Source of the DNA: a virus
IMG/VR virus record: IMGVR_UViG_3300008116_000011
Span: 32,001-96,000 of that record
DNA length: 64,000 nt
Reading direction: 5' to 3' (one strand)
The notes below the pieces were generated by a model. That model was not told the origin of the DNA, made no database searches, and worked only from the letters and a program-made list of their open reading frames with translations. Shown in pieces: positions 44,737 to 64,000 of the stretch. Numbering within the stretch: position 1 is the stretch's first letter; each line of letters begins with the position of its first letter. The position numbers were made by a program, and so were the translations under genes.

Positions 44737-45648
44737 TTATTTGATTTTTAAGATTTGAGATATAAACGCCATAAAGTTAATTTCTTTATCAGCGATAGTA
44801 TTATTTTGCCATAGATATTGAGCTGAATGTATTGCTACGTCTGCAGGTTGGGTTGTGTATTCGCTTACACGTTCATATAAGCCTGTAAATAAAGGTACGT
44901 AATCATTTACATCTGCATCTGCTACTGTTTGTCTAATATCAGTCCAAGCTGTTTTACTCTTTAATTTTAAATGTTTTATAACATCATTTAAAACGCCCTC
45001 AACATTAGCTACTAATGCTCCTGGATTTAGAGTATTATTGTCATCTATTGATTGTTGAGATGCATTAATAATTTTTCTAATGTCAGGGTAGTATGTTTTA
45101 ACTATAGCAGCAATATTAGGTAATTCATATTTAACACCCTCTTGATCTAATATCCAGGCTAAATGTTTTGCAACATCACCTTTAGCAGGTGGTTCAATAT
45201 GAAATGTTTGACATCTACTTTTAAGCGGATCAATTATACGTTCAGCATAGTTAGCTGTAAGTATAAATCGTGTTTTTGCAGAATAAGTTTCCATTACATT
45301 ACGTAATGCTGCTTGTGCTTGAGCAGTAATATAATCGGCTTCATCAAGTATTACTACTTTAAGTGGATTAAAACTACTCACAGAGGCAAAATCTACAATT
45401 TTATCTCTAATAGTATCAATTCCTCTTTCATCAGAAGCGTTAATGTACATTATATCACACTTGATATTTTTTGTAATTAACTTAGCTAATGTTGTTTTAC
45501 CTGTACCCGGCTTTCCAAATAGTAATAGATGAGGAATATCATTTGTAGTGATACATTTAGAAATGAAGGCTTTTACACCCTCATTTCCAACGTATGTATC
45601 TAGATTTTGACTACGATATTTCTCAACCCATAGCGAGTTGTTCGTCAT
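44737..45648 (-). CDS. Clamp loader large subunit (RFC/gp44-like AAA+)
   Basis: WVEKYR, GKPGTGKT, NASDERG, LDEAD, SRC. Confidence 0.95.
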   Translation of the reverse strand: MTNNSLWVEKYRSQNLDTYVGNEGVKAFISKCITTNDIPHLLLFGKPGTGKTTLAKLITKNIKCDIMYINASDERGIDTIRDKIVDFASVSSFNPLKVVILDEADYITAQAQAALRNVMETYSAKTRFILTANYAERIIDPLKSRCQTFHIEPPAKGDVAKHLAWILDQEGVKYELPNIAAIVKTYYPDIRKIINASQQSIDDNNTLNPGALVANVEGVLNDVIKHLKLKSKTAWTDIRQTVADADVNDYVPLFTGLYERVSEYTTQPADVAIHSAQYLWQNNTIADKEINFMAFISQILKIK

Positions 45649-47254
45649 TTTTATCTTTTTTAGGTTCGTTATAGATTACACATTCAGTTAACAATACAGT
45701 ACCTGCTACTGAAACGGCATTTTCAAGTGCTGTACGAGCTACTTTCATAGGATCGATAATACCTGCTTCAAACATATCTTTTATTGTTTCTGCTTTAATG
45801 TCGTATCCAAATGTACGGCCATTAGTTGGGTTTTCCTCTCTAGACTTCCTAAGAGCAAAGATAATTTCCTCTTTATTTTCAACACCCGCATTATCAAGAA
45901 TCTTAAGGAATGGAGCAGCACAAGCAATATATGCTATTCTCTTTCCTAAATTAAAATCTTCTCCATCTTCTTTCTTAAGTACGATATTTTCTCTTGCTTC
46001 TAGTAAAGCAATACCACCACCTGGGAGTAATCCTTCTTCAAGTGCTGCTTTAGTTGCTTGTAGAGCATCATCAATACGATCTTTCTTTTCTTTAATTTCA
46101 GTTTCTGTAGCTCCACCAATATTAATTACAGCAACTCCACCTACTAATTTTCCAAGACGCTCTTGTAAATGTTCTTTTTCGAACGCTGATTGTGCTTTTG
46201 CAATTTGTTCTTTTAGATCAGCAACACGATTTTGAATATCACCTTCTGCTCCACCACCATCTACAATTGTAGTTGTATCTTTAGTTACTGTTACTACTCT
46301 TGCTTTACCGAACCAATCTGAGTTGAAGCGCTCTAATTTCATTCCTTTCTCAGGTGAAATTACAGTACCACCAGTTACAGTTGCAATATCTTCAAGTACT
46401 GCTAAACGACGATCTCCAAAATCAGGTGCTTTAACAGCAACTGCTTTTAACATACCTCTCATTTTATTTACAATGAGTGTAGATAGTGCTTCACCATCAA
46501 TATCTTCAGCAATGATTAAAAGTGAACTATCTGTTTGTGAAGTACCCTCAAGTACTGGAAGTAGTTCTTTAACTGATGTTAATCGTCCGTTATAGATTAA
46601 AATCAATGGGTCTTTTAGAGCAGCAGACATTGTACTATTATCTGTTGTAAAATACATTGATTTATATCCCCTATCAAATTGAATACCTTCTACTGTTTCA
46701 AGTGATGTTTCACCTGTTTTACTTTCTTCAACAGTAACTACACCATCCATTCCTACCATATTCATGGCTTCAGCTACTAATGCTCCAATTTCTTCGTCAT
46801 TGTTAGCTGAGATAGTAGCTACTTGCTTAATTTGGTCTTCAGAATTAATTTCACGTTTAATTTCTTCTAAACCTTTAACTACTTCTTTAGCAGCCGCTTC
46901 AATACCTTTCTTTACTAATACTACGTTAGTATTAGGATTGATACTATGAAATGCTTTTTGAATTAATGAATTAGAAAGTACAGTTGATGTTGTTGTACCA
47001 TCACCTGCTTTATCTGCTGTTTTAATAGATGCTTGCTTAATCATTTGTGCACCTATATTTTCAATTGGATCTTCAAAATCCTTAAGTGTTTTTGCTACTG
47101 TAACACCATCTTTAGTACTGCGTACAGTTCCGTAGTCATCAATGAATACTACGTTGCGACCATAAGGTCCGAGTGTTGAGCTAACAGCATCAGCAACTTG
47201 CTTGATACCACTAGCTAATTTTTCTTTTGCTTCTTGATTGAATGCTGTCTTCAT
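45623..47254 (-). CDS. groEL: Chaperonin GroEL
   Basis: [37 protein letters not shown]. Confidence 0.97.
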
Positions 47255-47273: not shown

Positions 47274-47405
47274 TTAAAATACAGGAGCAAATCCCCTTTT
47301 TGTTTTATCACATTTTTCACATTTCCATAAAGCAAATGTACCATAAATGTGAACACAAGTCCATTTATGTTTACAAAATAAGGATTTGATATACTGTTTT
47401 ATCAT
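47274..47405 (-). CDS. 43 aa CxH...CxxC zinc-finger peptide between groES and groEL (missing from track)
   Basis: MIKQYIKSLFCKHKWTCVHIYGTFALWKCEKCDKTKRGFAPVF*; TAATG-coupled to groES. Confidence 0.55.
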   Translation of the reverse strand: MIKQYIKSLFCKHKWTCVHIYGTFALWKCEKCDKTKRGFAPVF

Positions 47406-47695
47406 TAGTCATTAATTAATGCTAATACGTTTGCTTCTGACACTGCAATATATTCTACTCCTTCCCATTCTAGTTTAGTAGGTCCTACTTGAGGTAATAC
47501 TACTTTATCTCCTACTTTAAATGACATAGGGATACGAGCATCTCCTGCGTTGTTCCACCTTCCAGGTCCAACATCAATAATTGTTCCTACAATTGCTTTT
47601 TCTTGTGACAAATCGGGAATAATAAATTTGCCGTGCATTTTTTCTGTTTTTTCATCCACCTTTACAATGATGGCATCCCATACTGCTTTAATCAT
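47405..47695 (-). CDS. groES: Co-chaperonin GroES
   Basis: IIPD...GTIIDVGPG...KVGDKV. Confidence 0.92.
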   Translation of the reverse strand: MIKAVWDAIIVKVDEKTEKMHGKFIIPDLSQEKAIVGTIIDVGPGRWNNAGDARIPMSFKVGDKVVLPQVGPTKLEWEGVEYIAVSEANVLALIND

Positions 47696-49194: not shown

Positions 49195-51777
49195 TTATCC
49201 AAATTTAAAGAATTTATTTATGGTATTGTTGAATATTGGTTTTCCCCATTTCAAATCCTCATATAGTGTTTCTAGTTTATTCTTTAACATTGAATCAAAT
49301 AATTGCACTTTGTCTAGGTATTTTTCAATGAATTCAGTAATAAATGGAGGATCATCATAACCGTTAAATCCAATTACGTCAATTCGATATGGATTATCTT
49401 TTAAATATGCTATAAACATTTTATCTCCAATCTGAAATGTATTGTGTTTTTTATCTAGTTTTTTAAATCGAAGTAAATCATTATAGTAAATAGCTGCTTT
49501 AGTATTGATAGGACATTTTAATTCCAATTTAGAGAATATTTCACCTGGTTGAGGTTTTGAAGCAATATATTCGCCTATGTTTTTTAATCCAGTAGGTTTA
49601 AGCAATAAACGCCAATCTACTGTGTTGATACTTTCTCTAAATGTAATAATCTGTTTGTCTATTTCTGGTTTAGGTTTACCAAACATAATGTCTTGAATTA
49701 GACCCTTTGCAAATTTTCTAAAGTAAGGAGCAAAGTTAGATTTCATCAAATCTAATCCTTTAATATCTAATTCCTCTACAGGCACACCTTCTTTATTTAC
49801 AATAAATTGAGCGTAACGTCTTTTACCTGCAAAGTATCCTCGTTCAAGTACAACCTCTTGCTTTAATTCAAAGTAATGAGGACGATCATGTAAATTAAAT
49901 AATTCTACTACTAATGTATTTAGATTTTCGTTTGCTACTTTTTGTATTTCAGTAGCAATTTCTAAAACATACTTTACAGCTTCTTCTCTATTATTAAGAT
50001 TTACATCAGGATATCTTTTTCGGATTAGATCCTTTACTTGGATAAATAACGAATCAGTATCTGATGTTACAATATAATCAATACCCTCAGTTTCCATTTG
50101 TTCATTCATCCATCTATTTACATATTTAATAGATTCCTGAGTTAAACGTTGCCCTGTAAGTGTAATTGCTTTTGAAACGAATTTATGTCCATCTGTATAG
50201 CGCCATCCATTAATAGCATAGCAACCATAAACGTCATTCAATTTAATTTTATATGCGTGTTGTCTACGATTATAGAATTCACCTTTAACAGCATCACCTG
50301 ACTTATATGCTTTTTTCATCAGGTTTTTATATTCAACACGTTTATTAAACCAGTCAGTTAATACATCACATACTATACTTGATCTGTCTTTTCGAAATAT
50401 AACACCAGGAGCAGATATAATCCAATTTTCCTGTTCAATTAATTTAATTATTTTTTCTACAGTTACAATTGAGCGTGAAATACTTTTATTTGGATTTATT
50501 CGCTCAATAGTAATTTCAGTATTTGGGTTTAATAATTTTAATTCTTTTAAAGACCATTGATTATCATATTTGTCTTTATTTACTATTCGTCCTATTAAAG
50601 TTTCAATCCCCATATTTAAGGAACGAATAATAGACGGATATAATGATGTAAAATCTAAATCAATAACCCACTCATATAATCCTGGTACTGGGTCTTTTAG
50701 GTATCCGCCAGCATATTCCTCTTTAATGTCTTTTAAATTAGGATTATAAGTTGTTGGTTTATTAGGTGAAATTACATTTTTACGTTTTAGATAAGTTAAA
50801 ATAGCGCCTTCATTTAATGTTGTAGACATATAAATTTGCTCATAAGGCACATGACACAGGTGGCAAATAATTACTGTTAGATCAATAAATTTAAGTTTAT
50901 CTTCAAGTGCAACTATAATTTCAACGTCTCTAATATTGTAATCAATAAACTTATTTATATCTTCTTTAAATAATTTATCTAATGAACCTAAATAATCTAC
51001 TTTGCCTAAATCAACATATTTTTCTCCAATATTACCTAAGGCATAAGATGGTTCTTGAGCTGTGATGTATTTTTTAAACAGCAACATATAGTCAAGGTGG
51101 TTTACACCTGCTATAGTAGTATATTTTTCTCCAGCAAATTCACCTTCATCTACTTGTTTTAATGGAGATAAACGTACAGCTTGGCTTTCACCTATTACTT
51201 TAGCAATACGATGATATAAGTAAGGAATATCAAAGAACTCACTATTCCACCCAGTTATAATTGTTGGATCTAATTCTTCCCATTTATCAAGGAACTTATA
51301 CATTAATTCCTTTTCTGTAAGGCAAGGTATTACTGTTTTATTTTCACTTGTAGATTCACTCATTGCCTTTGCTTCATCTAGAATGTAACAATAATACATT
51401 TTAGTACTATTGTCGTATAAAGCAATTGCTGTTAATTTACCTGCAGGGTCACGAACACTATCTTGGGTAAGCGCTCCTGCAATTTCACACTCAATATCTA
51501 GATAGACAATGTTTTGATATTCAGGTGTGTCGTCTTGTTCATAATAGGCATCTACTAATACACGAGTAAATTTATCAACATCACTTTCATAAGCATTAGA
51601 ATCTTTCCAATCATATTGTTTAGTTGGAGATACTTTAACGCCCTCTAATGTTTCATATTCACCTTTTTCATTTGCAACGTAGCAGGTAGCTCGATATGGA
51701 AATTCGAGCCACCCCTTTTTATCGTCACGTAGATGATATGTCTTTGTACTTCTGTTGTAATAAATTGCTTGATACAT
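49195..51777 (-). CDS. Family B DNA polymerase (gp43-like)
   Basis: DIE and GWNSEFFDIPY exonuclease motifs; DFTSLYPS, KIKLNDVYG, SDTDS, KRRY. Confidence 0.97.
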   Translation of the reverse strand: MYQAIYYNRSTKTYHLRDDKKGWLEFPYRATCYVANEKGEYETLEGVKVSPTKQYDWKDSNAYESDVDKFTRVLVDAYYEQDDTPEYQNIVYLDIECEIAGALTQDSVRDPAGKLTAIALYDNSTKMYYCYILDEAKAMSESTSENKTVIPCLTEKELMYKFLDKWEELDPTIITGWNSEFFDIPYLYHRIAKVIGESQAVRLSPLKQVDEGEFAGEKYTTIAGVNHLDYMLLFKKYITAQEPSYALGNIGEKYVDLGKVDYLGSLDKLFKEDINKFIDYNIRDVEIIVALEDKLKFIDLTVIICHLCHVPYEQIYMSTTLNEGAILTYLKRKNVISPNKPTTYNPNLKDIKEEYAGGYLKDPVPGLYEWVIDLDFTSLYPSIIRSLNMGIETLIGRIVNKDKYDNQWSLKELKLLNPNTEITIERINPNKSISRSIVTVEKIIKLIEQENWIISAPGVIFRKDRSSIVCDVLTDWFNKRVEYKNLMKKAYKSGDAVKGEFYNRRQHAYKIKLNDVYGCYAINGWRYTDGHKFVSKAITLTGQRLTQESIKYVNRWMNEQMETEGIDYIVTSDTDSLFIQVKDLIRKRYPDVNLNNREEAVKYVLEIATEIQKVANENLNTLVVELFNLHDRPHYFELKQEVVLERGYFAGKRRYAQFIVNKEGVPVEELDIKGLDLMKSNFAPYFRKFAKGLIQDIMFGKPKPEIDKQIITFRESINTVDWRLLLKPTGLKNIGEYIASKPQPGEIFSKLELKCPINTKAAIYYNDLLRFKKLDKKHNTFQIGDKMFIAYLKDNPYRIDVIGFNGYDDPPFITEFIEKYLDKVQLFDSMLKNKLETLYEDLKWGKPIFNNTINKFFKFG

Positions 51778-51803
51778 AACCTTTTAAATATACTAGGGTT
51801 TCT

Positions 51804-54218
51804 TTAATTTTCACGCCTTTCTTCTGGTTTATAGTAAATAATTCTATTATGCCAAACAGGTGCTGCTAATAATATAGCTGGTTTGATATGACCTCTCATT
51901 GTTTCTTGAAATATATAGGACATCCAGGTTTGTTCAAATGGATTTGCCCATTCTGTTTCTAGGAACATTTTATAATTACCTTTTTTATTTGCAATCATAG
52001 GCCAGTTAGCATAATAAATGTCACCAGTAGCATAAGATACTTCATTATGAACTTCAATTCTATCAAATTTAGTTCTGGGAGCATATGGGTCTAATCCTGA
52101 TACTGGTAATTGGTCATAGTCAGGCCATATATAACTTCTAACAGCTTGAGGAACATTATACCAAGATACTTGAATATTATTATCCATGTATACTTCTGTA
52201 TATGATAATTTAAGGAAATCAAATTCTTCCTTAGCCATTATTTCATGAACTTTGTCATATAGGTTAGGAACATATTTTCTAAATCCATTTCTACAGAAAC
52301 CAGTTTCAGTTGAAGGATATAACCCCATATCATCTTCAAAGAAGAAATAATAATCACTATCTGATTCATTGAAATGTTTTGCAGCAAATAGTCTTCCACC
52401 ATTAATTCCTTTGTTTTCATTCATAATGATGTGTTCAAAACCGTATTTGTCTGCTACTTCTTTATTAGTAATTCTAGCTTGTTCGTCTGTTGAGTTATCA
52501 ATTAGAATTTTTTTATGCGGTCTACTTAACCAATCAGGTGAATTTGCTTGCCATGTAGCTAAAGTATGTTCAATTTGTTGAGGAAAATTAAACGTTAACA
52601 TATATAGAGATGTTTTATCTGTATCTCTATTGTATAATCCTTTAGGCAAAACATGAGAGCGAGTACCATTATTTTCTAATTGTACTTGATCATCTAATAA
52701 TGCTTGTACAAATTTAACTACTAAACCATTATCATCTAAAGCATAACGTCTATAGATGTGAGGTTCTAAATGAGCCATAATACTAAAGATACTCTCTTCA
52801 GTGCCCATATATCCTGAATTTAGTGTATCTTGAAGTAAATTATAGTAGGTACCATTTGCTTGACTTAAAAAGTCTTTATGTCCACCAAATAATCCACCTC
52901 TACAAACATAAGTTACTTTTTCACGAGCATATCTGTTAATTGCTTTAAAGTCAAATCCATGAATTTCATCTGCGGCTTCATAGGGGTAACTTAGGAATAG
53001 GAATGTTTTTAGATACGGAATTATTTTATCTAGGCATCTATGCTCAGTAAAATATTTTTCATATACAGTATTTGTAATACCAGCATCAAGCCATAAGAAA
53101 TAATTAGTATCAAATACATTCATTACTTTAGCATCATGCAACATAAACATTTTTGATTGCACAATTGGGTTATACCACTCAAGTGATGCTTGAGGACTAC
53201 CAGGAAGCCATCCATGAGGACCTGTTTGATTCAACCAGTCAGGATTAGTTCTTATTTCTTGAGTTTTATCCCAAAATGGTTGATAGAAATTATTTTTAAT
53301 ACTTTCTAGTTCAAATGTTCTAACATAAGTGTTTTCAGGTTTACGTTTTTTCCATACTAGATATTCATATTCTTTAGGAATATAAATAAACATTTTAACT
53401 GGTATGTCTAGGAATTTATCAAAATTTTCAATGTAGTGGCTAAAATCTCTACCTGGGCGTCCTATGTTCCATAGCCCTGTTACTAGAGTTAAATCTTCAG
53501 TTAAATGTACTTCGGGAGTATTTTCAGATATTTTTACTTGTTCTCTTAGTTTATCTAGTTCATAAAATGCTAATCCTTTTCTAGTTCCTCCTTCATAATT
53601 GTCTACAATTGATTTTTCTTCAATATAAAGTTCAGGTTTAGGAAAATTAAAAGGTTCTGAATGTAGGCAGACAGGATAAAAAGCAGCTGCTCCTCTTTCC
53701 CAGTTTGCATCTACAGTTACAGTATTATCAGCATTAATATGTTTTTGAGAATAATTTTCATCGTTTAAATCATACCAAGTAGTAGTTAGAAGATATTTAC
53801 ATTTTGATTTTAAAATGTTATTTATTGCTTTACGTCCATCTTCTAAACTAAGATGTCCTAACACATCTCTTACAATCAATAAGTCAGCTTCAGGAATTTC
53901 AATATTGTCTTGAGTTAAATCAATTTCTTGAAATTTAATTATTGAATTAGCATACTTTTGGTTGTCTTGGATTAATTCAGGGACAATATCACATCCTGTG
54001 TAGCTTTCAAAACTATACACTATATCTTTCATCCAGTTAAAGTCACCACAAGGAATATCAACTACGGATTTAATCTCTTTGTCTTTAACTAATTGCTTAA
54101 TTTGTTGTCTAATAACTTCAGTTTCATCCATTGTGCTTCCAGGGCCACTTTTACTTTCAGGCCAACCTCCAAATCTCCAGTTTGTGTAAACATCTTGAAA
54201 AACCTCTTTTAAACTCAT
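51804..54218 (-). CDS. Multidomain protein: SAM methyltransferase + HtrL-like glycosyltransferase + GT-A domain
   Basis: SGPGS...VDIPCGDFNW; LVTGLW...WLDAGI...GGLFGG...GTEE; LIDNS...FFEDD. Confidence 0.75.
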   Translation of the reverse strand: MSLKEVFQDVYTNWRFGGWPESKSGPGSTMDETEVIRQQIKQLVKDKEIKSVVDIPCGDFNWMKDIVYSFESYTGCDIVPELIQDNQKYANSIIKFQEIDLTQDNIEIPEADLLIVRDVLGHLSLEDGRKAINNILKSKCKYLLTTTWYDLNDENYSQKHINADNTVTVDANWERGAAAFYPVCLHSEPFNFPKPELYIEEKSIVDNYEGGTRKGLAFYELDKLREQVKISENTPEVHLTEDLTLVTGLWNIGRPGRDFSHYIENFDKFLDIPVKMFIYIPKEYEYLVWKKRKPENTYVRTFELESIKNNFYQPFWDKTQEIRTNPDWLNQTGPHGWLPGSPQASLEWYNPIVQSKMFMLHDAKVMNVFDTNYFLWLDAGITNTVYEKYFTEHRCLDKIIPYLKTFLFLSYPYEAADEIHGFDFKAINRYAREKVTYVCRGGLFGGHKDFLSQANGTYYNLLQDTLNSGYMGTEESIFSIMAHLEPHIYRRYALDDNGLVVKFVQALLDDQVQLENNGTRSHVLPKGLYNRDTDKTSLYMLTFNFPQQIEHTLATWQANSPDWLSRPHKKILIDNSTDEQARITNKEVADKYGFEHIIMNENKGINGGRLFAAKHFNESDSDYYFFFEDDMGLYPSTETGFCRNGFRKYVPNLYDKVHEIMAKEEFDFLKLSYTEVYMDNNIQVSWYNVPQAVRSYIWPDYDQLPVSGLDPYAPRTKFDRIEVHNEVSYATGDIYYANWPMIANKKGNYKMFLETEWANPFEQTWMSYIFQETMRGHIKPAILLAAPVWHNRIIYYKPEERREN

Positions 54219-55846
54219 AAATTTATGTTTTTTCTAATATAATATTTTTCTGTTATTAATCCATCCATTTGGGAATTTTCAAATACATATAAAGCATCTT
54301 TTAACGTTGTAAGAATAGGCATTCCATTAACATTAAATGATGTATTTAGTATAACACCAATTCCTGTCTTTTCTTCAAATTTAGTTATAAGATCATATAA
54401 CCATTTATTTTGTTCTCTTGTTACTGTTTGAACACGAGCGGTATTATCAACGTGTGTAATAGCTGCTAATTTTTCTCTCCATTCTTCACGTACAACGGGA
54501 GCATAAGACATCCACCTTGCATCTCGATCCCACTCAAAGTATTTATTTACATCTTCTAAACGCACAACAGGAGCAAATGGTCTATACCATTCTCTATGTT
54601 TAACTTTTTGGTTTAAAATATCTTTCATTTCTGGAAATGATGGGTTGCAGATAATACTTCTGTTTCCTAGTGCTCTAGGTCCGTGCTCAGAATTTCCTCT
54701 TACTATTCCTATAATTTTACCTTCAGCTAGTTCATCAATAACCAAATTCATATCTAGATCATCTTTCCACCATGATTGATTATTAAAATAATAATGAAGC
54801 ATATCTTTGTCTAATACAGGCAAACCAGCATATGTTACATCTATTGGTTCTTCTGGTTTGATAAAAGCAGCTAATAAGCCTACAGCTATACCACAGTCAT
54901 TAGGGTTAGGTCCTACGAATACTTCTTTATTAAATTCATTTACTAATCTAGTATTTAACAGAATGTTCAAACCACATCCTCCAGTTATACAAATTGGAAG
55001 ATCAGGAAATAATTCAAAATATGGTAATGCTATTTCTAAAAAGCATTCTTCAAATGCTCTTTGTGAAGTAGTAGCTATATCCCATGCTACTTGTCCTTCC
55101 AATCTGTTATTAAAATCAAATGTAACTCCTATTTTTTCACCTAACACATCTATTTTGGCTTGATAGTTAGTTCCATTAGGATCACTTTTGTAAAAATCTA
55201 TAAAATCATTTAACCATTCCTCTCTTACATTACCATAAGAAACAAGTCCCATTATCTTACCAGAGTAAACTAAATTTCCTTCACTTAAAGGTTCAAACTT
55301 TATATCATTAAGATAATGTCCAAACAACATATAGGGAAATCCTAAATCATATTCTATCCAATGTTGCCCCATAGTAGGATTTGCTAGTCTTTCTAGCAAT
55401 GCAGGTTCTTTACCTCGCACACAATGATAAATGTTAAATTTACCATCATCTCCTCCTCCATCAAATGAAAATACTATTGCTTCCTTGTACGGTGATTGAT
55501 AAAAAGTACCAGCAGCATGAGCTTGATGGTGATGATAATCATAGTAATTATCAGCTTTTATAGCATGTGGGGTGTGTAATAACTGGTTATCTATTACTAG
55601 ATCAGTATTGATGGCAATGCAATTTTCAAATTTATCAATATTATATTCTTTTTTGATAAGATCAACTGCATCTCTAATTAGTCCTTTAAGGTCATTATAT
55701 CCCTTATGTTTAGGTACTTTATATTGAGCTACACCTGCATTTTTATACCCTATATATCTTTCAATTTCAACAACACATACTATTTTGCCGTCTTTTTCAA
55801 CAGCTAAAGCTGCATTGTGTGATCCATAATATCCTATATTAGCCAT
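54215..55846 (-). CDS. NodU/CmcH-family carbamoyltransferase
   Basis: HHQAHA, DGGGD, GKIMGL, GGCGLN, EHGPRALGNRS, KHREWYRPFAP, NTSFN. Confidence 0.93.
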   Translation of the reverse strand: MANIGYYGSHNAALAVEKDGKIVCVVEIERYIGYKNAGVAQYKVPKHKGYNDLKGLIRDAVDLIKKEYNIDKFENCIAINTDLVIDNQLLHTPHAIKADNYYDYHHHQAHAAGTFYQSPYKEAIVFSFDGGGDDGKFNIYHCVRGKEPALLERLANPTMGQHWIEYDLGFPYMLFGHYLNDIKFEPLSEGNLVYSGKIMGLVSYGNVREEWLNDFIDFYKSDPNGTNYQAKIDVLGEKIGVTFDFNNRLEGQVAWDIATTSQRAFEECFLEIALPYFELFPDLPICITGGCGLNILLNTRLVNEFNKEVFVGPNPNDCGIAVGLLAAFIKPEEPIDVTYAGLPVLDKDMLHYYFNNQSWWKDDLDMNLVIDELAEGKIIGIVRGNSEHGPRALGNRSIICNPSFPEMKDILNQKVKHREWYRPFAPVVRLEDVNKYFEWDRDARWMSYAPVVREEWREKLAAITHVDNTARVQTVTREQNKWLYDLITKFEEKTGIGVILNTSFNVNGMPILTTLKDALYVFENSQMDGLITEKYYIRKNINL

Positions 55847-55855
55847 TATATTTAA

Positions 55856-56911
55856 TTAATAGGGTTCAGTATGAGGCCAAGCATTATGTTGATCCATCAT
55901 ATCTTTTATTTCTTTATTTTTCTCCATAAAATCCTCTAAACTAGTCCCTACAGCAAAATTTCCACCAAATCCAGGAATAGAAGGAGGCATAAAATATCTA
56001 TCTTCGAAATGTATTTGTCTGTTATATACAGTGTTAGGGAAATTTAATACTTCTATTTTATGAAAAATATTAGTAGTTGCTACTGGCATATAGTCACATA
56101 ACATATAGCCACCGCATTGTTGGCATGCTTTTAAGAAATGTTCTCCATAAAATATGTTAATACATTCATTCCATATATCAAAGTAATCTTTAACCTTTTC
56201 CGGACTTTCAAAATGATAGTATCTGAATGGTCCCTCAGTTATAGGAAGTTGAGTTATAAATGGATCACCAAATATATTTTTTTGTTTAAATAATTTATTA
56301 AGAACTATTGAGCATGCTTGTAAACCTACTAAAGAACCTGTTGATCCCATAGCCATAGACCATCTTAATCTGTATGAACCTGTTGGAGAATCAAAAGAAA
56401 GAGGATCAATTCCTAAAGTTTCTTTAACACATCCCTTCATTGAATTAATAGGAGTATTAAATTCCTCCCAAAATTCTTCTTCAGTCATAGTTCCATCTAC
56501 TATTTTATCGTATCTGATTTTTACATCACCATCCATAAACACAATTTTCTTATATCCTAATTGTGATATAGTTGGAAATGAAAATCTATGAGCCGAATAA
56601 GAGAAAAAATGACCTCTGCTCATAGCTTCTTTATATTCATTCCCATAAGCATCAGGGTCAATAGCATTTGATGGAATAAATTCTAAATCTTCAGACCATG
56701 GATATGGTTTTCTAGCTTCATGAACATTTATAATGGCTTTAACTTTCCCAGTCTGTTCAGCAAATTCTAAAAAATCTTCAGGATAATCCGTTAAAATAAC
56801 ATAATCCATCATGTTATCATAACCCATAGACATTGCATCTAAAATATTAAGTTTAACGCGTCTACGGTAAGAAGGACCAAATCCCCAAAGTGAAATAATC
56901 GGTTTTTCCAT
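55856..56911 (-). CDS. Putative GT-A glycosyltransferase
   Basis: VILTD.P and FMDGD (DxD). Confidence 0.5.
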   Translation of the reverse strand: MEKPIISLWGFGPSYRRRVKLNILDAMSMGYDNMMDYVILTDYPEDFLEFAEQTGKVKAIINVHEARKPYPWSEDLEFIPSNAIDPDAYGNEYKEAMSRGHFFSYSAHRFSFPTISQLGYKKIVFMDGDVKIRYDKIVDGTMTEEEFWEEFNTPINSMKGCVKETLGIDPLSFDSPTGSYRLRWSMAMGSTGSLVGLQACSIVLNKLFKQKNIFGDPFITQLPITEGPFRYYHFESPEKVKDYFDIWNECINIFYGEHFLKACQQCGGYMLCDYMPVATTNIFHKIEVLNFPNTVYNRQIHFEDRYFMPPSIPGFGGNFAVGTSLEDFMEKNKEIKDMMDQHNAWPHTEPY

Positions 56912-56914
56912 AAC

Positions 56915-57859
56915 TTATTTTAAAAGTTCTAAATCAAAAACATCAAAAAACGACTCTACAATTTTATCCAATAATAAATATTGTTGATAATATTCTACGT
57001 TATTTCTAGATATAGAAGTTAATAATTCTTCGTTATTAATAGCATCTTCAACTGCTTTTATATAATTAGCAGCTGACTGTTCAAAAGGTATTCCTGGAAA
57101 TACTAGACTGGCATTTATAGAGGCTTCATTTCCTTTTATGTAATTTGTCCCAGGAATTAGTTCTTTATAAAAAGGAGTTTTTAATTCTGCTCTTACAAGA
57201 GGAATTCCTAACCCCATTGCTTCTACATCTCTTAAACACCATTCTCCATTACCATTAAGTGAAAGAGCAAGAGCATATTGACTTAATACTTCATAATATT
57301 TTTCTCCTCGAATGTTGTGTTCATGTCCAAATACATCAAATAAAGGGTGTTGTTCTAGTATATCTGTTATTTGTTTTCTTGAATCATATATCCATCCTAT
57401 AAAACATGCCTTTTTAATTTTTTCATTGTAATTATAAGGTATTCTATATTTTTCTATAAGATCATAGGAACGTAAAAATTCTAAAGCATATAAGAACGGA
57501 CTAAACTTAATTCCTGTTCTTTGTAATATTGCTTCAGGGGATTCATAAATACCTAACCCACCTATAAGGTGAACAATATTAAGTGAATCCCATTCAAGAT
57601 GGCCTGTTGTTATATCCATTGCTCTATCCCAAAAACTAAGAACAGTTGCCTTTTTATTATCCGGGTTAATAATTTTTAAACTAGCTATTCCACATCTACC
57701 CCCTGGTGATTGGCAACCAGGGTAAACATCATACACACTTATTTTAGATTTTGTTACTTCAGGATAATGTTTGTCAATATTATTATACACACTATTAAAT
57801 ACATATCCAAATCCTTGATTTCCACCTCCATCAAAAGAGTACTCAAATATTAAATTCAT
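56915..57859 (-). CDS. Putative GT-B glycosyltransferase-like protein
   Basis: FIGW...R, LSLNGNGEWCLRDVEAMGLGIP. Confidence 0.55.
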   Translation of the reverse strand: MNLIFEYSFDGGGNQGFGYVFNSVYNNIDKHYPEVTKSKISVYDVYPGCQSPGGRCGIASLKIINPDNKKATVLSFWDRAMDITTGHLEWDSLNIVHLIGGLGIYESPEAILQRTGIKFSPFLYALEFLRSYDLIEKYRIPYNYNEKIKKACFIGWIYDSRKQITDILEQHPLFDVFGHEHNIRGEKYYEVLSQYALALSLNGNGEWCLRDVEAMGLGIPLVRAELKTPFYKELIPGTNYIKGNEASINASLVFPGIPFEQSAANYIKAVEDAINNEELLTSISRNNVEYYQQYLLLDKIVESFFDVFDLELLK

Positions 57860-59154
57860 CTAATTATTTTATAATTATAATCAATGTTACCTTCAATTCG
57901 CTCAGCCCAATCTTTAGATCTGCTGTGTGCCCAAATTACCCAACGTGATGGTACTTTGTCTGTAAGGAAGAATTTTTCTTCCCTATACCAATCTCCAGGT
58001 GATGATAGTATATTTCTTATTTGGTATTCATTATAATCTTCTCTCCACATTTCTTTTCCATCTTCATCATCAAAGGCACAAACCCAAAAATCATAATCAT
58101 TTTCTTTAAAATTAGATTTATTAAATTCAACTAAATGGTAGAAAGAAAACATAAATGAATCTTCCCATTCTTGTTCATTTTCAATTATAGGATTTGGAGG
58201 ATAATTATTTTCATAAGTATAACGCTGTACTGAGCGTTTTTTAAAATGAATACCAGCATATTTTTCATAGTCACGGAGTGTACGTTCAGTTCCTAAATCA
58301 TATCCTGTAAGATCAAATCCATTGTCTTCAGTACGTAATAATTGTCTAATTTTAGAGCGAGCAATATTTTGTTGTGTCCACCAATCTTCACCACGTTTGT
58401 GTTGGTCATCCCAAACTAAAATACCATCACGTTCAGTTCTCATAGTAGCATGCCAAATTACAAGTTTATGAGGATGAAACATATCATATCCATGAGTATA
58501 AGAACGTACTGTTAAATTAAGTTCTTCACCACTAAAGTAAATATCTTGGTCATGTAGTATTGTTTTAGCCCAATGCCCATCAGCAAAGCAGAAATGACCT
58601 GATAAAAATCTTGATGGTGGTGGTTCAGTCATATCTTGCCATCCATGTAACAGTGAAGGACGAATAAAGATAGTACCATGTGGATAAAAACAAGCAAATG
58701 TTTGTTGCCAAGGTTCCATTGTCCTGTCAGCAGGATCATTAAACGGATTATAATAGGGTAGATAAGCGGCTAATATTGGTTTTTTAATACCTTTATCTTT
58801 AAGTTGATCATGCATCTCAATTAATGTAACATCCCAACCCTCAGCAAATCTATGATGTGAATCAAGTTGACAAATATACTCTTCATCTCTTAACATTGTG
58901 TTAATTTGATAACGAGCATAAGGTAAACCTTTAGCTTCAGTGTGCGGAATATCCATTATTCTAAAACGAGGATCATCTCTAAATTCATCTACGTTATCAA
59001 ATCCATCTTCAGGATTAAATTGCCTACAAATACCAAATACTAATCTATCAGGATAAGTAGCATTTTCTAATGCCGATTTAATTGTAGGGACTAATTCTGG
59101 TTCTCTATAGGCAGGTAGATGGATAAAGATTTTTCTTAAATGTGCTTTTTTCAT
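57856..59154 (-). CDS. Skp1-hydroxyproline GlcNAc transferase-like (GT60/GlcNAc family)
   Basis: IFIHLPAYRE, AKGLPYAR, QLDSHHRF, SGHFCF, FSGEE, YTHGYD. Confidence 0.8.
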   Translation of the reverse strand: MKKAHLRKIFIHLPAYREPELVPTIKSALENATYPDRLVFGICRQFNPEDGFDNVDEFRDDPRFRIMDIPHTEAKGLPYARYQINTMLRDEEYICQLDSHHRFAEGWDVTLIEMHDQLKDKGIKKPILAAYLPYYNPFNDPADRTMEPWQQTFACFYPHGTIFIRPSLLHGWQDMTEPPPSRFLSGHFCFADGHWAKTILHDQDIYFSGEELNLTVRSYTHGYDMFHPHKLVIWHATMRTERDGILVWDDQHKRGEDWWTQQNIARSKIRQLLRTEDNGFDLTGYDLGTERTLRDYEKYAGIHFKKRSVQRYTYENNYPPNPIIENEQEWEDSFMFSFYHLVEFNKSNFKENDYDFWVCAFDDEDGKEMWREDYNEYQIRNILSSPGDWYREEKFFLTDKVPSRWVIWAHSRSKDWAERIEGNIDYNYKIIR

Positions 59155-60434
59155 TATCTAGGTATTTCTTGTTCAATAATTTTGTGATTCCATTCTTTTG
59201 ATTTACTATGTGGCCATAATAACCAACTTACAGGTGCTTCTTCACATTCAAACTCTCTCCAAATATGGTAAAATTGATCTGTTGAATCAGACATTTTAAA
59301 ATTTCTAATTTCATTTTCATTAACATCTGCTCTAATCATTTCATTACCATTTTTATCTTTAAAAGCAACTACCCAACAATCATAATCATCATCAGTTAAC
59401 GCTCCTTTCCATACATCTATACAATATTTAAATTTCTTTACAAAATTTTTATTCCATTGTTCTTCACTTTCAAATGGTACTGGGAGTAATTTTTGGTCTA
59501 AAGTATGTCTTTGTATTCGTTTTCCTTTAAAATCAACTCCAATATAACGCTCAAATTCAGCTAATGAACGTTCTTTACCTAAATCAAACCCAACAAAATC
59601 AAGTCCTTCTCTACTTTCATCATCTATTCCAAATAATGCTCTATATTTTCTAAATGAAAATTTATCTAAAGGAGAAAATTGATGATCATCCCAATGACGT
59701 GTTTTTCCATTTCTAGTATATTCATGCCATATTACTGGAAAATGGGGATGGAATAGGTCATATCCATGAGTGTATGCTCTAGCAGATATTGATGTTTCTT
59801 CTCCATGAAAATAAAGATCAGGATCATGTGGAACATCATGTACAAATGATCCTAAAGTAAATCCAAAATGTCCTGAATAAAATCTTGCAGGGATAGGTTC
59901 GGTATATTTTTGCCAGTTATCAACATGAGAAGGAACAATAAATATAGGACCTTCAGGCATAAATCTATCATAATTAGTATGCCATACCTCTATATTACGC
60001 CCAGCAGGGTCATTATTTGGAAAGTATCCAGGTAAATATGCAGTTAATAGTGGTTTTTTATAGCCTTTCTTTTGAAGATTTTTTAGCATGTTAATTAAAC
60101 TTTCATCCCAATCTTTAGTAAATCGATGATGAGAGTCTAATTGTAATGTGTATGTTTCTCCATTATAATATCTTTGTAATCTATTTCTAGCCCAACAAAC
60201 ACCTTTAGCATCTTTGTAATGAATATCTATAATTTTAAAACGAGGATCACCCAAATATTCATCTAAATGATCCCATTTATCTTCCTCAGCATGTTGCCAG
60301 GCAATGCATATCCTTAAATTTTCAGGCCACTTTGCATTATCAAGCATGTCCTTAATTGTAGGACGTAATTCAGGATCGCGATAAGAAGCAATTTGTACGA
60401 ATATTGTTTCTTCTAGTTGTTTCTTTTTTGGCAT
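59154..60434 (-). CDS. Skp1-hydroxyproline GlcNAc transferase-like (GT60/GlcNAc family)
   Basis: IFVQIASYRDPE, AKGVCWAR, QLDSHHRF, FHGEE, ARAYTHGYD, LGKERSL. Confidence 0.85.
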   Translation of the reverse strand: MPKKKQLEETIFVQIASYRDPELRPTIKDMLDNAKWPENLRICIAWQHAEEDKWDHLDEYLGDPRFKIIDIHYKDAKGVCWARNRLQRYYNGETYTLQLDSHHRFTKDWDESLINMLKNLQKKGYKKPLLTAYLPGYFPNNDPAGRNIEVWHTNYDRFMPEGPIFIVPSHVDNWQKYTEPIPARFYSGHFGFTLGSFVHDVPHDPDLYFHGEETSISARAYTHGYDLFHPHFPVIWHEYTRNGKTRHWDDHQFSPLDKFSFRKYRALFGIDDESREGLDFVGFDLGKERSLAEFERYIGVDFKGKRIQRHTLDQKLLPVPFESEEQWNKNFVKKFKYCIDVWKGALTDDDYDCWVVAFKDKNGNEMIRADVNENEIRNFKMSDSTDQFYHIWREFECEEAPVSWLLWPHSKSKEWNHKIIEQEIPR

Positions 60435-60472
60435 AACAGATTATATAACAATTTATTTGCTATACATATATA

Positions 60473-61012
60473 TTAGAGTGAATTTCTTTGCTTATCATTT
60501 TGCCACTGTCCATTATACATTACATCAGTATTGTTTGATGGGTGGAAATAAATTTGTGCTACACGAGCATCTTTTTCAATGAATATTGTTTCATGAACAT
60601 AAAGCAAAGTACCCATATTATCTGTTTCAAATCCAGGATCAAATACAGGGCTATTGATTATAGCTCCATTTCTGTACAGAGATGAACGTTGCTTAATGAA
60701 TGCAGTACGATTTGATGGAATTTTACATCCCTCCCAAAACGTAATATCATATACACCTTTATAAAGTAACCATCCTTCAGCACCATCTAAATTGATAGTA
60801 TCAACAGGAGTATAAGTAGTTAATTCAGTTTTGTCCTTAAGTACTTTACCTATTTTACCATCTTTAGTTACGTTGTAAGGGTTATTTGCTATGCTAGTAC
60901 CTACTTTCTGTACGGCTTTAAGTGATAAATCATAACCAACTTGTGCTGGTTTTCCTTTAGTGTGCTCTAATTTGAGCAATCCTTCGTCTATAATTTGTTG
61001 TGAATTTAACAT
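60473..61012 (-). CDS. dCTP deaminase/dUTPase family protein
   Basis: GYDL, RSSLYR, FDPGF, RVAQI, YNGQWQ. Confidence 0.85.
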   Translation of the reverse strand: MLNSQQIIDEGLLKLEHTKGKPAQVGYDLSLKAVQKVGTSIANNPYNVTKDGKIGKVLKDKTELTTYTPVDTINLDGAEGWLLYKGVYDITFWEGCKIPSNRTAFIKQRSSLYRNGAIINSPVFDPGFETDNMGTLLYVHETIFIEKDARVAQIYFHPSNNTDVMYNGQWQNDKQRNSL

Positions 61013-61024
61013 AATATAAAGTTA

Positions 61025-61186
61025 TTAAAGTTCTTCTAATATTCCAAGTATTTCTGCTAGTACAAATCCTAATCCTGCGAATTCAAAATCTTGATACATA
61101 ATACCAACACCAGCTATAATTCTAATAACTGATTTGGCTATACTAAACCAGAAATGACTTTTTGATTTACTTTCCTTTGGTTGCAT
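61025..61186 (-). CDS. 53 aa membrane peptide (missing from track)
   Basis: MQPKESKSKSHFWFSIAKSVIRIIAG...AEILGILEEL*. Confidence 0.6.
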   Translation of the reverse strand: MQPKESKSKSHFWFSIAKSVIRIIAGVGIMYQDFEFAGLGFVLAEILGILEEL

Positions 61187-61580
61187 AGTCTGCTATTGTT
61201 TGTGAATCTTTTTGTTCCCATGGATAAACTATCCATTCATTTTCAGAAGCTAACTTCCACCAAAAATGAGGTTCATATTCTGATGCTGTTTTATAATGAA
61301 GAGTAGCTGTGTAGACATTATCTTCAAATTTAAAACGTTTTAATGTTTTACCTGAGTCGCAAATGTCATCTACAATTAGGATGTTGCTTGTTATTCCTTT
61401 AATGTTAGCTTGAGACACAAAAGGGATATTTAACTTATGAGACAATATAACTGCTGGAATTAATCCTCCACGAGGTAAACCTCCAATAGCTGCTATCTCA
61501 TATTTGCTGTTGGTGATGTTAATGGCTAGTCTTTCAACAGCATCATCAATATCACTCCATGATATAAAACGTTTATCCAT
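61167..61580 (-). CDS. Purine phosphoribosyltransferase (Gpt/Hpt-like)
   Basis: GLPRGGL, LIVDDICDSGKT, WIVYPWE. Confidence 0.9.
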   Translation of the reverse strand: MDKRFISWSDIDDAVERLAINITNSKYEIAAIGGLPRGGLIPAVILSHKLNIPFVSQANIKGITSNILIVDDICDSGKTLKRFKFEDNVYTATLHYKTASEYEPHFWWKLASENEWIVYPWEQKDSQTIADYATKGK

Positions 61581-62308
61581 TATCTATAACCTTCCATTCC
61601 TAATTTAAGCATTTCAAGTACCTCAGCTTTAGCTGTTCTAGTATGATCAGCAAATACACCTGATACCTCACTTGTAACCATTGATGCTCCAAAATGTTTT
61701 ACTCCTCTACAACTAACACAGTTGTGGAATGAATGTACTACTACCATTACACCAATGTTATCTTCACAAATAGTATCTACAGCATTGTGTATTGCAACTG
61801 TAAGTTGTTCTTGAATAGCACCTCTACGAGCAAAATGCTCTACAATACGATTTAATTTACTTAAACCTACTACTTTACCATCTTTACCAGGTACATAAGC
61901 AACGTGTGCTTTACCTAAAATTGCTTGGTGGTGGTGAGAACACATTGATACAATTGGAATATCTCTTTCAAGTACAATACCTGTGTAACCATCAGAAGGG
62001 AATGCTGTGATGTCTGTAGGTAACTCATAACGACCTTTCCATAGGTCATTAACGTATGCTTTAGCTACACGGCGAGGTGTTTCCATACTATTTGGATCAT
62101 TTCTCCAATCAACACCCAATGCATCTAAAAATTCACCGTATGCTTTTTCAGCTTGATCAATTATTGCTGTTTTCTCATCTGAATTCAGTGAACGATGATT
62201 ACCAGCATCAATTAATGATTTTAATTGAAGTGACATTCCGTTTGCAAAGCCGGGTTGTGCTGTTTCTAAAGATTCAACTTGTGTAACTTTTCGTCTTTTA
62301 TTTTCCAT
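61580..62308 (-). CDS. folE: GTP cyclohydrolase I
   Basis: TPRRVAK, SMCSHH, GLSKLNR, QEQLT, HNCVSCRG; promoter at 62329-62360. Confidence 0.95.
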   Translation of the reverse strand: MENKRRKVTQVESLETAQPGFANGMSLQLKSLIDAGNHRSLNSDEKTAIIDQAEKAYGEFLDALGVDWRNDPNSMETPRRVAKAYVNDLWKGRYELPTDITAFPSDGYTGIVLERDIPIVSMCSHHHQAILGKAHVAYVPGKDGKVVGLSKLNRIVEHFARRGAIQEQLTVAIHNAVDTICEDNIGVMVVVHSFHNCVSCRGVKHFGASMVTSEVSGVFADHTRTAKAEVLEMLKLGMEGYR

Positions 62309-62360
62309 TTACATAACTATTTTATAATTAAATATACGACCAAATATTTGGTTTTCAAAA

Positions 62361-63560: not shown

Positions 63561-64000
63561 TTATTTTAGTAAGTCGTAATATTCCTTAAAATGTTTCTTA
63601 CGATCTTCTAAACCAATAGTTCCACCGTTTACAAGTTTTGTAACTTTAGTTACTGTATCGTCTCCGGCTCCTAAATCTGCGGTTGCATTAATTTTTCTGC
63701 TGTTCCAATACCAAGCAGCTGATAGTAATGGATATTTAGTTGCAACTAAATCAGGATTTTCAAGAATATTTTCTGTTACTACAGCATCAAATGCTTTATA
63801 ATTATCTTTTCCAGTTAATTGAATATAACCACGTCCTCTAAATTTCCAACCCTCTTTTGTAGCTTCAACACCATTACCCATTCTACCACCATATACTTTA
63901 GAAGCAATTAATTCCGGTTTTCTTTCATATTGTTTTGCTAGTGCTTCAGTTGGGAAATATTTTTTAAAAGTAGTCATCAATCCTTTTGCTCCGTAATTTA
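63561..64000 (-). CDS. GH19 (chitinase-like) endolysin, 5' end outside the window
   Basis: GWKFRGRGYIQLTGKDNY, SAAWYW, VTKLVNGG..GL.DR. Confidence 0.9.
   Translation of the reverse strand, partial: NYGAKGLMTTFKKYFPTEALAKQYERKPELIASKVYGGRMGNGVEATKEGWKFRGRGYIQLTGKDNYKAFDAVVTENILENPDLVATKYPLLSAAWYWNSRKINATADLGAGDDTVTKVTKLVNGGTIGLEDRKKHFKEYYDLLK

Follow-up and report, generated by a model that had tools for sequence, protein, structure and literature searches.

The gene run and its source genome

We analyzed a 64,000-nucleotide stretch of viral DNA (the window), namely bases 32001-96000 of the 174,437-bp IMG/VR virus record IMGVR_UViG_3300008116_000011, with a focus on a gene run at positions 49195-62360 that leads from a GTP cyclohydrolase I gene (folE) to a family B DNA polymerase gene (polB). 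The record has direct terminal repeats and is rated complete, and its source is a complete 174-kb Immutovirus-like phage: FolE, the adjoining phosphoribosyltransferase (PRTase), QueC, QueD, GroEL, DnaB, recombinase, and endolysin show 40-73% protein identity to their homologs in Flavobacterium phage immuto_2-6A (hereafter, immuto). A megablast search with the 13-kb region found no matching, and hence no near-identical, phage record. The run lies on the minus strand and, according to the open reading frame (ORF) list and to Pfam and PHROG searches, consists of ten genes and one 53-codon ORF, with intergenic gaps of -4 to 52 bp. From upstream to downstream (window coordinates, unless given as genome coordinates), these are:

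61580-62308, minus strand: GTP cyclohydrolase I (FolE), first step of 7-deazaguanine synthesis; PF01227, 5e-44 and, in a second search, 2e-45
61167-61580, minus strand: Gpt-like small 6-oxopurine PRTase, conserved partner of FolE; PF00156, 3e-13
61025-61186, minus strand: 53-codon ORF with a single hydrophobic stretch, the eleventh "gene" of the run
60473-61012, minus strand: Dcd-family deoxynucleoside triphosphate (dNTP) pyrophosphatase, dUTPase-like; PF22769, 6e-12, and PF00692
59154-60434, minus strand: GT1, a GT60-like glycosyltransferase (GT) of the GT-A type; PF11397, 3e-70, 237.9 bits against a cutoff of 21
57856-59154, minus strand: GT2, a paralog of GT1 (44% identical); PF11397, 5e-53, 181.2 bits against a cutoff of 21
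56915-57859, minus strand: GT-B-like glycosyltransferase, 314 amino acids (aa), CgeB/GT90/RXYLT1_C-like, variable cassette member
55856-56911, minus strand: GT-A (GT8-like) glycosyltransferase candidate, 351 aa, variable cassette member; no Pfam family
54215-55846, minus strand: NodU/CmcH/TobZ-type O-carbamoyltransferase; Carbam_trans_C, PF16861, 5e-64, and Carbam_trans_N, PF02543, 1e-24
51804-54218, minus strand: 804-aa protein with an N-terminal S-adenosylmethionine (SAM) methyltransferase, an HtrL/YibB-like GT-A domain, and a second GT-A domain (Pfam, PHROG)
49195-51777, minus strand: family B DNA polymerase (PolB); PF00136, PF03104, and phrog_262, 7e-155

The run is composed of two unrelated units, a 7-deazaguanine/nucleotide module represented by FolE, the PRTase, and the dUTPase-like gene and an inserted, mobile glycosylation cassette extending from GT1 to the 804-aa protein. 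PolB is a synteny anchor outside the cassette. A previous reading of this DNA from its letters alone (the sequence-only reading) had described eleven tightly packed, co-oriented genes ending in polB. Their content, packing, and order hold up; the number is eleven only if the 53-codon ORF is counted, and the shared orientation is uninformative because the minus strand carries 207 of the 224 predicted genes of the genome.

The cassette is a mobile, hypervariable insertion

We compared 78 IMG/VR loci around PolB homologs, 53 of which have at least 4 kb upstream of PolB. The common order of genes in these loci is DpdA3-QueC-QueD-QueE-FolE-(PRTase)-dNTPase-PolB-u246-GroES-GroEL, and its PolB-u246-GroES-GroEL part is conserved in the 78 loci. 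The GT60-like gene is absent from 36 of the 53 PolB loci with at least 4 kb upstream, and the series GT1-GT2-...-804 is wedged before PolB only in the subclade with PolB identity of at least 81% and in a few other loci. In distant relatives, the cassette sits among other genes. Gene content differs in its middle part: 9 of 14 close loci encode the carbamoyltransferase, as do 4 of 12 distant ones and 8 of the 72 loci from a wider sweep (see below), and elsewhere GT2, GT92, and FkbM-type genes stand in its place. The 804-aa protein is the conserved end of the cassette, although its methyltransferase part is optional in relatives.

The cassette also occurs in genomes that lack QueC, DpdA3, ThyA, TET, and PolB, one of 174 kb and 100% complete (G001) and another 98% complete (G002). 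GroEL of the former genome is 53% identical to that of the phage analyzed here, below the values for immuto (58%) and for cassette-less relatives (60-63%). A profile-based sweep of IMG/VR recovered the GT60-like family in at least 590 stretches, and 72 new loci from this sweep were examined. An 804-type homolog accompanies GT1 in 61 of these; FolE, QueC, or DpdA3 was found within 10 kb in four and PolB in two. The cassette is mobile and hypervariable, and in one subclade, it is inserted between the dNTPase gene and polB. The sequence-only reading had proposed a possible role of the glycosyltransferase block in DNA modification; in relatives, neither polB nor folE is linked to this block, which argues against such a role. 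For the genes that flank the cassette in distant relatives (genome 10.5-28 kb), PHROG and Pfam searches gave almost nothing, so the designation of these genes as structural rests on their size and repeats.

Cassette enzymes and their predicted activities

The D-S-H metal motif of GT1 (D100-S101-H102) is invariant in 52 distinct homologs and is kept in GT2. PF11397 is the Skp1-GlcNAc (N-acetylglucosamine) transferase family of Pfam, which supports a polypeptide acceptor, and from this family assignment, GT1 is predicted to be an initiating polypeptide N-acetylhexosamine (HexNAc) transferase. Among eukaryotic GT60 enzymes, Gnt1 of Dictyostelium and Toxoplasma acts on a hydroxyproline (Hyp) of Skp1, and the trypanosome enzyme is a mucin Thr alpha-GlcNAc transferase. 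The phage enzymes resemble the eukaryotic ones in the highly significant PF11397 matches, the D-S-H motif, the soluble character of the enzyme, and a Thr/Pro-rich candidate acceptor, and differ in the viral/prokaryotic setting, an extra C-terminal domain of ~90 aa, and the lack of a prolyl hydroxylase. A Hyp-linked, Skp1-type mechanism was discarded because no 2-oxoglutarate (2OG) oxygenase was detected in the genome (PF13640, PF03171); in the absence of a prolyl hydroxylase, a Thr/Ser linkage is to be expected.

The 314-aa protein has no Pfam match, but an ESM Atlas feature score of 0.97 links it to PF13524 clusters, and its template modeling (TM) scores to Glyco_trans_1_2 models are 0.66-0.71. 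The 351-aa protein contains an invariant D127-x-D129 motif, and its model has a predicted local distance difference test (pLDDT) value of 70; almost all of the Foldseek matches listed are GT-A enzymes (WbbM, XXYLT1, and glycogenin), with TM scores of only 0.2-0.35. With moderate confidence, we consider this protein a probable GT-A (GT8-like) glycosyltransferase. The carbamoyltransferase matches the structures 7xb6, NovN, TobZ, and GdmN in the Protein Data Bank at 1e-42 to 1e-49, with 1e-42 to 1e-45 for the latter three, and its 164.7 bits fall short of the cutoff of 1000 for a NodU equivalog. By these similarities, it resembles the O-carbamoyltransferases of sugars and small molecules (TobZ, NovN, GdmN) and would have an accessory, tailoring role.

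In the 804-aa protein, domains 240-515 and 535-800 were modeled at pLDDT 80-94, and the E628-D629-D630 motif is invariant. A sequence search against solved structures returned nothing for this protein or for GT1. The best Foldseek matches of the 804-aa protein (E-values of 5e-11 to 1e-8) are tandem GT-A enzymes, namely Mimivirus R699, LH3 (LH3/ColGalT1), LARGE1, and K4CP, several of which build protein glycans. The overall TM score is ~0.2, a low value due to a different orientation of the domains, and the phage protein has an additional N-terminal methyltransferase; the modeled similarity does not imply polymerase activity. None of the cassette proteins has a membrane-like segment or a signal-like N-terminus.

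A second, small sugar island outside the window (L006:5261-8147, genome 99261-102147) encodes a TylF-like O-methyltransferase, a fusion of a HAD phosphatase with a nucleotidyltransferase, and a 275-aa protein. Homologs of the 275-aa protein lie within the glycan cassettes of other phages, and in one relative (L093), the HAD-nucleotidyltransferase gene is located directly upstream of PolB. The TylF-like methyltransferase and the HAD-nucleotidyltransferase fusion probably supply or tailor sugars.

Mucin-like repeat proteins as candidate acceptors

In a scan of proteome composition, three proteins stood out by mucin-like Thr/Ser-Pro repeats, with (T/S)-x-T-P-(S/T) as the repeat unit:

genome 13255-20307 (L041:255-7307), minus strand: 2,350-aa repeat protein, with 37% Thr, 18% Pro, and 15% Ser in its first 1,616 residues
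genome 130079-135271 (L120:2079-7271), minus strand: 1,730-aa repeat protein with ~1,100 repeat residues
genome 11931-12590: 219-aa protein with T/S-P repeats

Thr and Ser in the repeats are encoded by mixed codons, with both serine codon families in use; what is maintained is therefore the repeat of the protein. The 1,730-aa protein is encoded between the tail sheath and adaptor/fiber genes, contains a Gly_rich_2 domain at its end, and shows weak PHROG matches to tail-fiber-associated families. In both giant proteins, the repeats are followed by small recurring Cys-containing modules separated by T/P linkers.

Genomes were screened with a degenerate DNA pattern for the repeat. The pattern was found in all four complete genomes with the cassette (317, 17, 2, and 25 matches) and in none of the nine complete cassette-less relatives, nor in immuto; because related genomes are not independent, the split of 4/4 against 0/9 overstates the evidence. 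Among 103 GT60-like loci, a repeat ORF is present in 56 and, in 38, shares the strand of the first GT60 gene and ends upstream of it at a distance of no more than 400 bp, compared with none of the 61 control loci (cassette-less PolB loci, 1.0 Mb), although these adjacency counts are inflated by relatedness. The pairing of GT60 with repeat genes recurs in at least three lineages of the phage group and in Xanthomonas jumbo phages. The closest relative (L010) has a 1,180-aa repeat ORF between the PRTase gene and the dUTPase-like gene.

Taken together with the family assignments, these associations make it likely that, next to the deazaguanine module, the run contains a cytoplasmic O-glycosylation cassette that acts on the phage's own mucin-like proteins. 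The GT60-like enzymes would attach the first HexNAc to Thr/Ser of the phage's Thr/Ser-Pro repeat proteins, the other glycosyltransferases would lengthen the glycan, and the carbamoyl- and methyltransferases would decorate it, yielding a sugar coat on the virion fibers. A carbamoylated and methylated protein glycan had been the second choice of the sequence-only reading, and it is the one that the comparative evidence favors, given that the block travels with Thr/Ser-Pro repeat genes.

Several observations weigh against this interpretation. A cassette-less genome (G019, 84% complete) contains a pure (TP)n repeat without a GT1 match, and two incomplete cassette genomes lack the repeat pattern. 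In the phage analyzed here, a long distance separates the repeat genes (genome 11.9-20.3 kb and 130-135 kb) from the cassette (83.8-92.4 kb). The acceptor is inferred from gene context only, the identity of the sugars is likewise a prediction, and the placement of the repeat proteins in the virion is deduced from gene position and the weak PHROG matches. Furthermore, the subclade cassette occupies the slot that, in immuto, holds the deazaguanine tailoring genes for DpdA3, DpdN, and QueF, a position that leaves room for a co-opted role in DNA modification, and phage DNA glycosyltransferases have been recruited from protein and lipopolysaccharide (LPS) GT families (bioRxiv 10.1101/2023.12.21.572611).

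Literature searches on GT60 in phages and on threonine-rich glycosylated phage proteins yielded no description of this system. The GT60-like family, present in at least 590 phage contigs and typically located right after Thr/Ser-Pro repeat genes, appears to be the more interesting side of the locus. If the repeat domains are indeed glycosylated, many environmental phages would use enzymes of their own to build a mucin-type coat on their fibers, one that might influence adsorption, stability, grazing, or immune recognition.

Comparison with known phage glycosylation systems

To our knowledge, virion glycosylation has been shown experimentally in phages only for mycobacteriophages and has been hinted at for the Xanthomonas jumbo phage XacN1. 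In mycobacteriophages, capsid and tail-tube subunits are modified on short extensions at their C-termini, by enzymes from other GT families. Phage-encoded glycosyltransferases are common to both systems; here, these enzymes and the repeat tracts co-occur and adjoin, and one of the repeat proteins is encoded among tail genes. The candidate acceptors in the present system differ in being giant repeat domains of up to ~1,600 residues in fiber-like proteins, the enzymes are GT60-like, and carbamoyl and methyl tailoring is added. The mycobacteriophage glycosyltransferases are reported to act within the cell on proteins of the virion of the phage that encodes them (Freeman et al. 2023, Cell Host Microbe 31:1216, cited in PMC12582341).

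A close parallel is offered by XacN1, an unrelated 385-kb jumbo phage of a gammaproteobacterium. Its ORF334, which adjoins the carbamoyltransferase ORF333, shares 41% identity with GT1 over 97% of the length, and the XacN1 genome contains the coding pattern for T/S-P repeats (48 matches, compared with 0 in controls). XacN1 differs in having a single GT60-like gene, a longer carbamoyltransferase (2,298-bp gene), and a bona fide ThyA encoded 50 kb away, whereas the phage analyzed here has none. The XacN1 report (Yoshikawa et al. 2018, PMC5852040) describes at least two glycoproteins in the virion and suggests the phage glycosyltransferases as their makers. Both XacN1 and Xoo-sp13 are cultured phages.

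The deazaguanine module

The genes that complete the pathway starting with FolE lie 8-13 kb beyond the window, upstream of the FolE unit:

genome 104506-105333, outside the window: QueC; PF06508, 1.4e-40; 62% identical to immuto QueC
genome 106911-107372, outside the window: QueD; PF01242, 2e-16; 73% identical to immuto QueD
genome 105377-106168, outside the window: DpdA3 homolog, 263 aa, adjoining QueC
genome 102371-103261 (L006:8371-9261), outside the window: divergent QueE-like radical-SAM gene, 296 aa

The 263-aa protein aligns with immuto DpdA3 (gp206) through residues 2-258, with 33% identity over 258 residues (E-value of 4e-38); the Pfam models TGT (PF01702) and DUF6610 (PF20314) gave no match to DpdA, which was found only by its homology to immuto DpdA3. 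The 296-aa QueE-like protein has no Pfam match, is weakly similar to immuto QueE (24% identity, E-value of 4e-4), and scores from 6e-10 to 1e-5, far below the cutoffs, with five NCBIfam QueE models. Its homologs (71-80% identical) take the QueE position in relatives. That position is held by either the immuto type or the divergent 296-aa type, and nearly every PolB locus shows just one of the two. Neither QueF nor DpdN was detected in the genome. FolE is located downstream of QueC/QueD/QueE/DpdA3 in 22 of the 36 cassette-less PolB relatives.

The assignment of FolE to 7-deazaguanine synthesis in the sequence-only reading is thus borne out by QueC, QueD, the QueE-like protein, and the DpdA3 homolog encoded just outside the window. 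Among the genes which that reading had proposed to look for in the rest of the genome, queC, queD, a dpdA3 homolog, and a QueE-like gene are present, whereas thymidylate-synthase-like and 2OG-Fe(II) genes were not found.

The orthology with immuto (PMC10516641) extends to FolE (63% identical to gp210), the PRTase (49% identical to gp211, which likewise adjoins FolE), QueC, QueD, and DpdA3, and to the backbone of the genome, namely GroES/GroEL after the polymerase, DnaB, recombinase, and endolysin. In immuto, all G is replaced by 7-(formylamino)methyl-7-deazaguanine (fdPreQ1), for which the divergent transglycosylase DpdA3 is held responsible (PMC10516641). With QueF and DpdN absent, fdPreQ1 is not expected in the phage analyzed here, and by analogy, the predicted base is probably preQ0. 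The two phages differ also in the divergent type of QueE, in PolB replacing a family A polymerase, in a Dcd-like gene in the place of the MazG-like gp208 of immuto, and in the glycan cassette, which is missing from immuto. FolE and the PRTase are part of an ordinary guanine-to-7-deazaguanine system of a known type. By analogy with immuto, GTP would be converted to a 7-deazaguanine base, which DpdA3 would swap for guanine in DNA after replication, and the Gpt-like PRTase would then, most likely, recycle the excised guanine to GMP.

The sequence-only reading had the PRTase salvage a modified base into the dNTP pool, a route made unnecessary by the DpdA3 homolog, which would exchange the base. 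A variant of this idea, in which the PRTase makes a 7-deazaguanine nucleotide that reaches DNA via ribonucleotide reductase (RNR) and the polymerase, with the Dcd-like or MazG-like enzyme clearing the competing dGTP, seems unlikely but deserves consideration. The adjacency of FolE and the PRTase is kept in immuto and many relatives, a dNTP pyrophosphatase and a class II RNR are encoded in the same neighborhood, and TubE-type PRTases couple 7-carboxy-7-deazaguanine to phosphoribosyl pyrophosphate (PRPP) (PMC6112128). Furthermore, phages with DpdA3 replace 100% of G, and attempts to reconstitute DpdA3 activity did not succeed (PMC10516641). However, a DpdA3 homolog, regarded as a signature of post-replicative insertion (PMC10516641), is present here, and the PRTase is missing from many relatives that retain the whole deazaguanine pathway. 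The nearest relatives of the PRTase are ordinary 6-oxopurine PRTases: the nearest solved chains are the archaeal purine PRTases 1vdm and 4z1o and Escherichia coli XGPRT, and the match to the NCBIfam xanthine PRTase model (3e-13) is below the cutoff. Moreover, the dNTPase gene scores as a dUTPase. We therefore prefer post-replicative exchange by DpdA3, with the PRTase in guanine recycling.

Alternative roles of the cassette

Rather than modifying phage proteins, the cassette could act during infection on a host envelope polysaccharide (LPS, capsule, or O-antigen) and remodel it, for instance, as a barrier to superinfection. Several features are compatible with this possibility: the HtrL/YibB domain is a family of the LPS-core gene region, the 351-aa protein weakly matches WavE and WbbM-like proteins, the tandem GT-A fold resembles polysaccharide polymerases (K4CP, heparosan synthase), and the set of genes is hypervariable, a trait of O-antigen loci as well. 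On balance, we find this role improbable: the cassette proteins lack membrane-like segments and signal-like N-termini, Pfam, PHROG, and NCBIfam searches of the block matched no family of flippases, polymerases, or ligases, the initiating enzymes belong to a polypeptide-GlcNAc-transferase family, and the dominant conserved neighbor is a repeat-protein gene directly upstream. The glycoproteins in XacN1 virions (PMC5852040) point in the same direction.

The central proposal of the sequence-only reading, that a salvaged base is glycosylated, carbamoylated, and methylated in DNA, fares worse. In its general form, this hypothesis has a sugar attached in DNA to a 7-deazaguanine or a hydroxylated pyrimidine, followed by carbamoylation and methylation of the sugar. 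The arrangement of the subclade, with the cassette between FolE-PRTase-dNTPase and PolB, in the slot that holds DpdA3, DpdN, and QueF in immuto, is suggestive of such a pathway, and there are precedents: a NodU-family phage enzyme carbamoylates 5-hydroxymethylcytosine (5hmC) (PMC8670742), phage glycosyltransferases can add di- and trisaccharides to 5hmC (bioRxiv 10.1101/2023.12.21.572611), and N2-glycosylated preQ0 is known as the natural product huimycin (PMC7439116). A phage-encoded enzyme of the NodU/CmcH family is, indeed, the feature that the present phage shares with the 5hmC carbamoyltransferase system identified by MetaGPA (Yang et al. 2021, PMC8670742) and with T4-type glycosylated hydroxymethylcytosine. 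The MetaGPA enzyme, however, co-occurs with a thymidylate-synthase homolog, whereas a profile search of the complete genome analyzed here, in which the controls matched, detected no thymidylate-synthase homolog (PF00303), TET/JBP (PF12851), or 2OG-Fe(II) enzyme (PF13640, PF03171). The genome thus lacks a ThyA-like, TET/JBP, or 2OG-Fe(II) gene to make an acceptor hydroxyl, and preQ0, the base predicted in view of the missing QueF, offers no hydroxyl either. In relatives, the cassette is independent of the premodification genes: it occurs in the complete genomes without QueC, DpdA3, ThyA, TET, and PolB, and no deazaguanine gene was found nearby in 68 of the 72 wider loci. MetaGPA itself recovered GT-flanked carbamoyltransferases on contigs without cytosine modification (PMC8670742). 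XacN1, which bears the homologous pair of genes, has restrictable DNA, its genomic DNA being digested with BssHII, NaeI, and SpeI (PMC5852040). Considering all this, DNA hypermodification by the cassette is very improbable.

Slightly less probable still is a restricted version of this hypothesis, under which the cassette inserted in the subclade was co-opted to put a carbamoylated, methylated glycan on a 7-deazaguanine or another DNA base; if true, a sugar-bearing purine would be described in a genome for the first time. The least probable option is that the cassette, FolE, and the PRTase jointly make a soluble, sugar-bearing 7-deazapurine (a metabolite resembling huimycin, dapiramicin, or toyocamycin), which would accord with the ability of TubE-type PRTases to couple 7-carboxy-7-deazaguanine to PRPP (PMC6112128) and with huimycin clusters that join preQ0 genes with a glycosyltransferase (PMC7439116), but the cassette mostly occurs without any deazaguanine gene, DpdA3 offers the base a destination in DNA, and no transporter or self-resistance gene was detected in the block by Pfam or PHROG. 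O-glycosylation of the phage's own repeat proteins thus remains the preferred interpretation. The locus also calls for caution: a block of glycosyl-, carbamoyl-, and methyltransferases can be flanked by genes for nucleotide modification and for a DNA polymerase and, as is most likely here, serve a purpose other than DNA hypermodification.

The dNTPase slot, the polymerase, and flanking genes

The gene between the PRTase and the cassette had been labeled a dCTP deaminase in the sequence-only reading. This label was dropped in favor of an archaeal-type dUTPase, the model for which scores better (NF002598, 4e-23, 81.7 bits against a cutoff of 130) than that of dCTP deaminase (TIGR02274 dCTP_deam, 1.5e-7, 31.3 bits against a cutoff of 92.8), both scores being below the curated cutoffs; the nearest solved chain is 9w59, annotated as "probable dUTPase." In 19 of the 36 cassette-less relatives, a Dcd-like or MazG-like gene ends no more than 300 bp from PolB. 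Depending on the relative, the slot before the polymerase or the cassette contains either a Dcd-like, dUTPase-type gene (60473-61012 in the window) or a MazG-like (PRA-PH) gene (L008:33370-33894 in a relative), that is, unrelated dNTP pyrophosphatases.

Downstream of PolB, two further anchors were identified:

47405-47695, minus strand: GroES, 37% identical to immuto GroES
45623-47254, minus strand: GroEL, 56-58% identical to immuto GroEL

The T4-like family B polymerase occupies the exact place of the family A polymerase gp199 of immuto, and a 425-aa homolog (33% identity) of the immuto "family A polymerase" piece gp001 is retained elsewhere (L007:3321-4598, genome 115321-116598). This looks like a non-orthologous replacement of the polymerase within one phage group. 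In one relative (L108:10001-13447), the PolB match covers 3.4 kb rather than 2.6 kb, which suggests that an intein or a homing-endonuclease gene has been inserted into this polymerase gene.

The sequence-only reading had also placed a promoter for the run at 62329-62360, in the 52-bp gap upstream of folE:

62331-62358, minus strand: sigma-70-like match, TTGAAA-16-TATATT, 10/12

Such sites occur in the region at chance level (90, compared with 96.7 +/- 9.9 in shuffles), so that the match is no evidence of a promoter and the sigma-70 reading was discarded. A Bacteroidota host would use a promoter consensus different from that of sigma-70.

Positions 63561-64000 hold part of the gene for a 199-aa protein, the ORF of which continues to genome position 96160. 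This protein matches chitinase class I (GH19) and is 51% identical to the immuto endolysin; it is a probable endolysin, encoded between both halves of the deazaguanine gene set.

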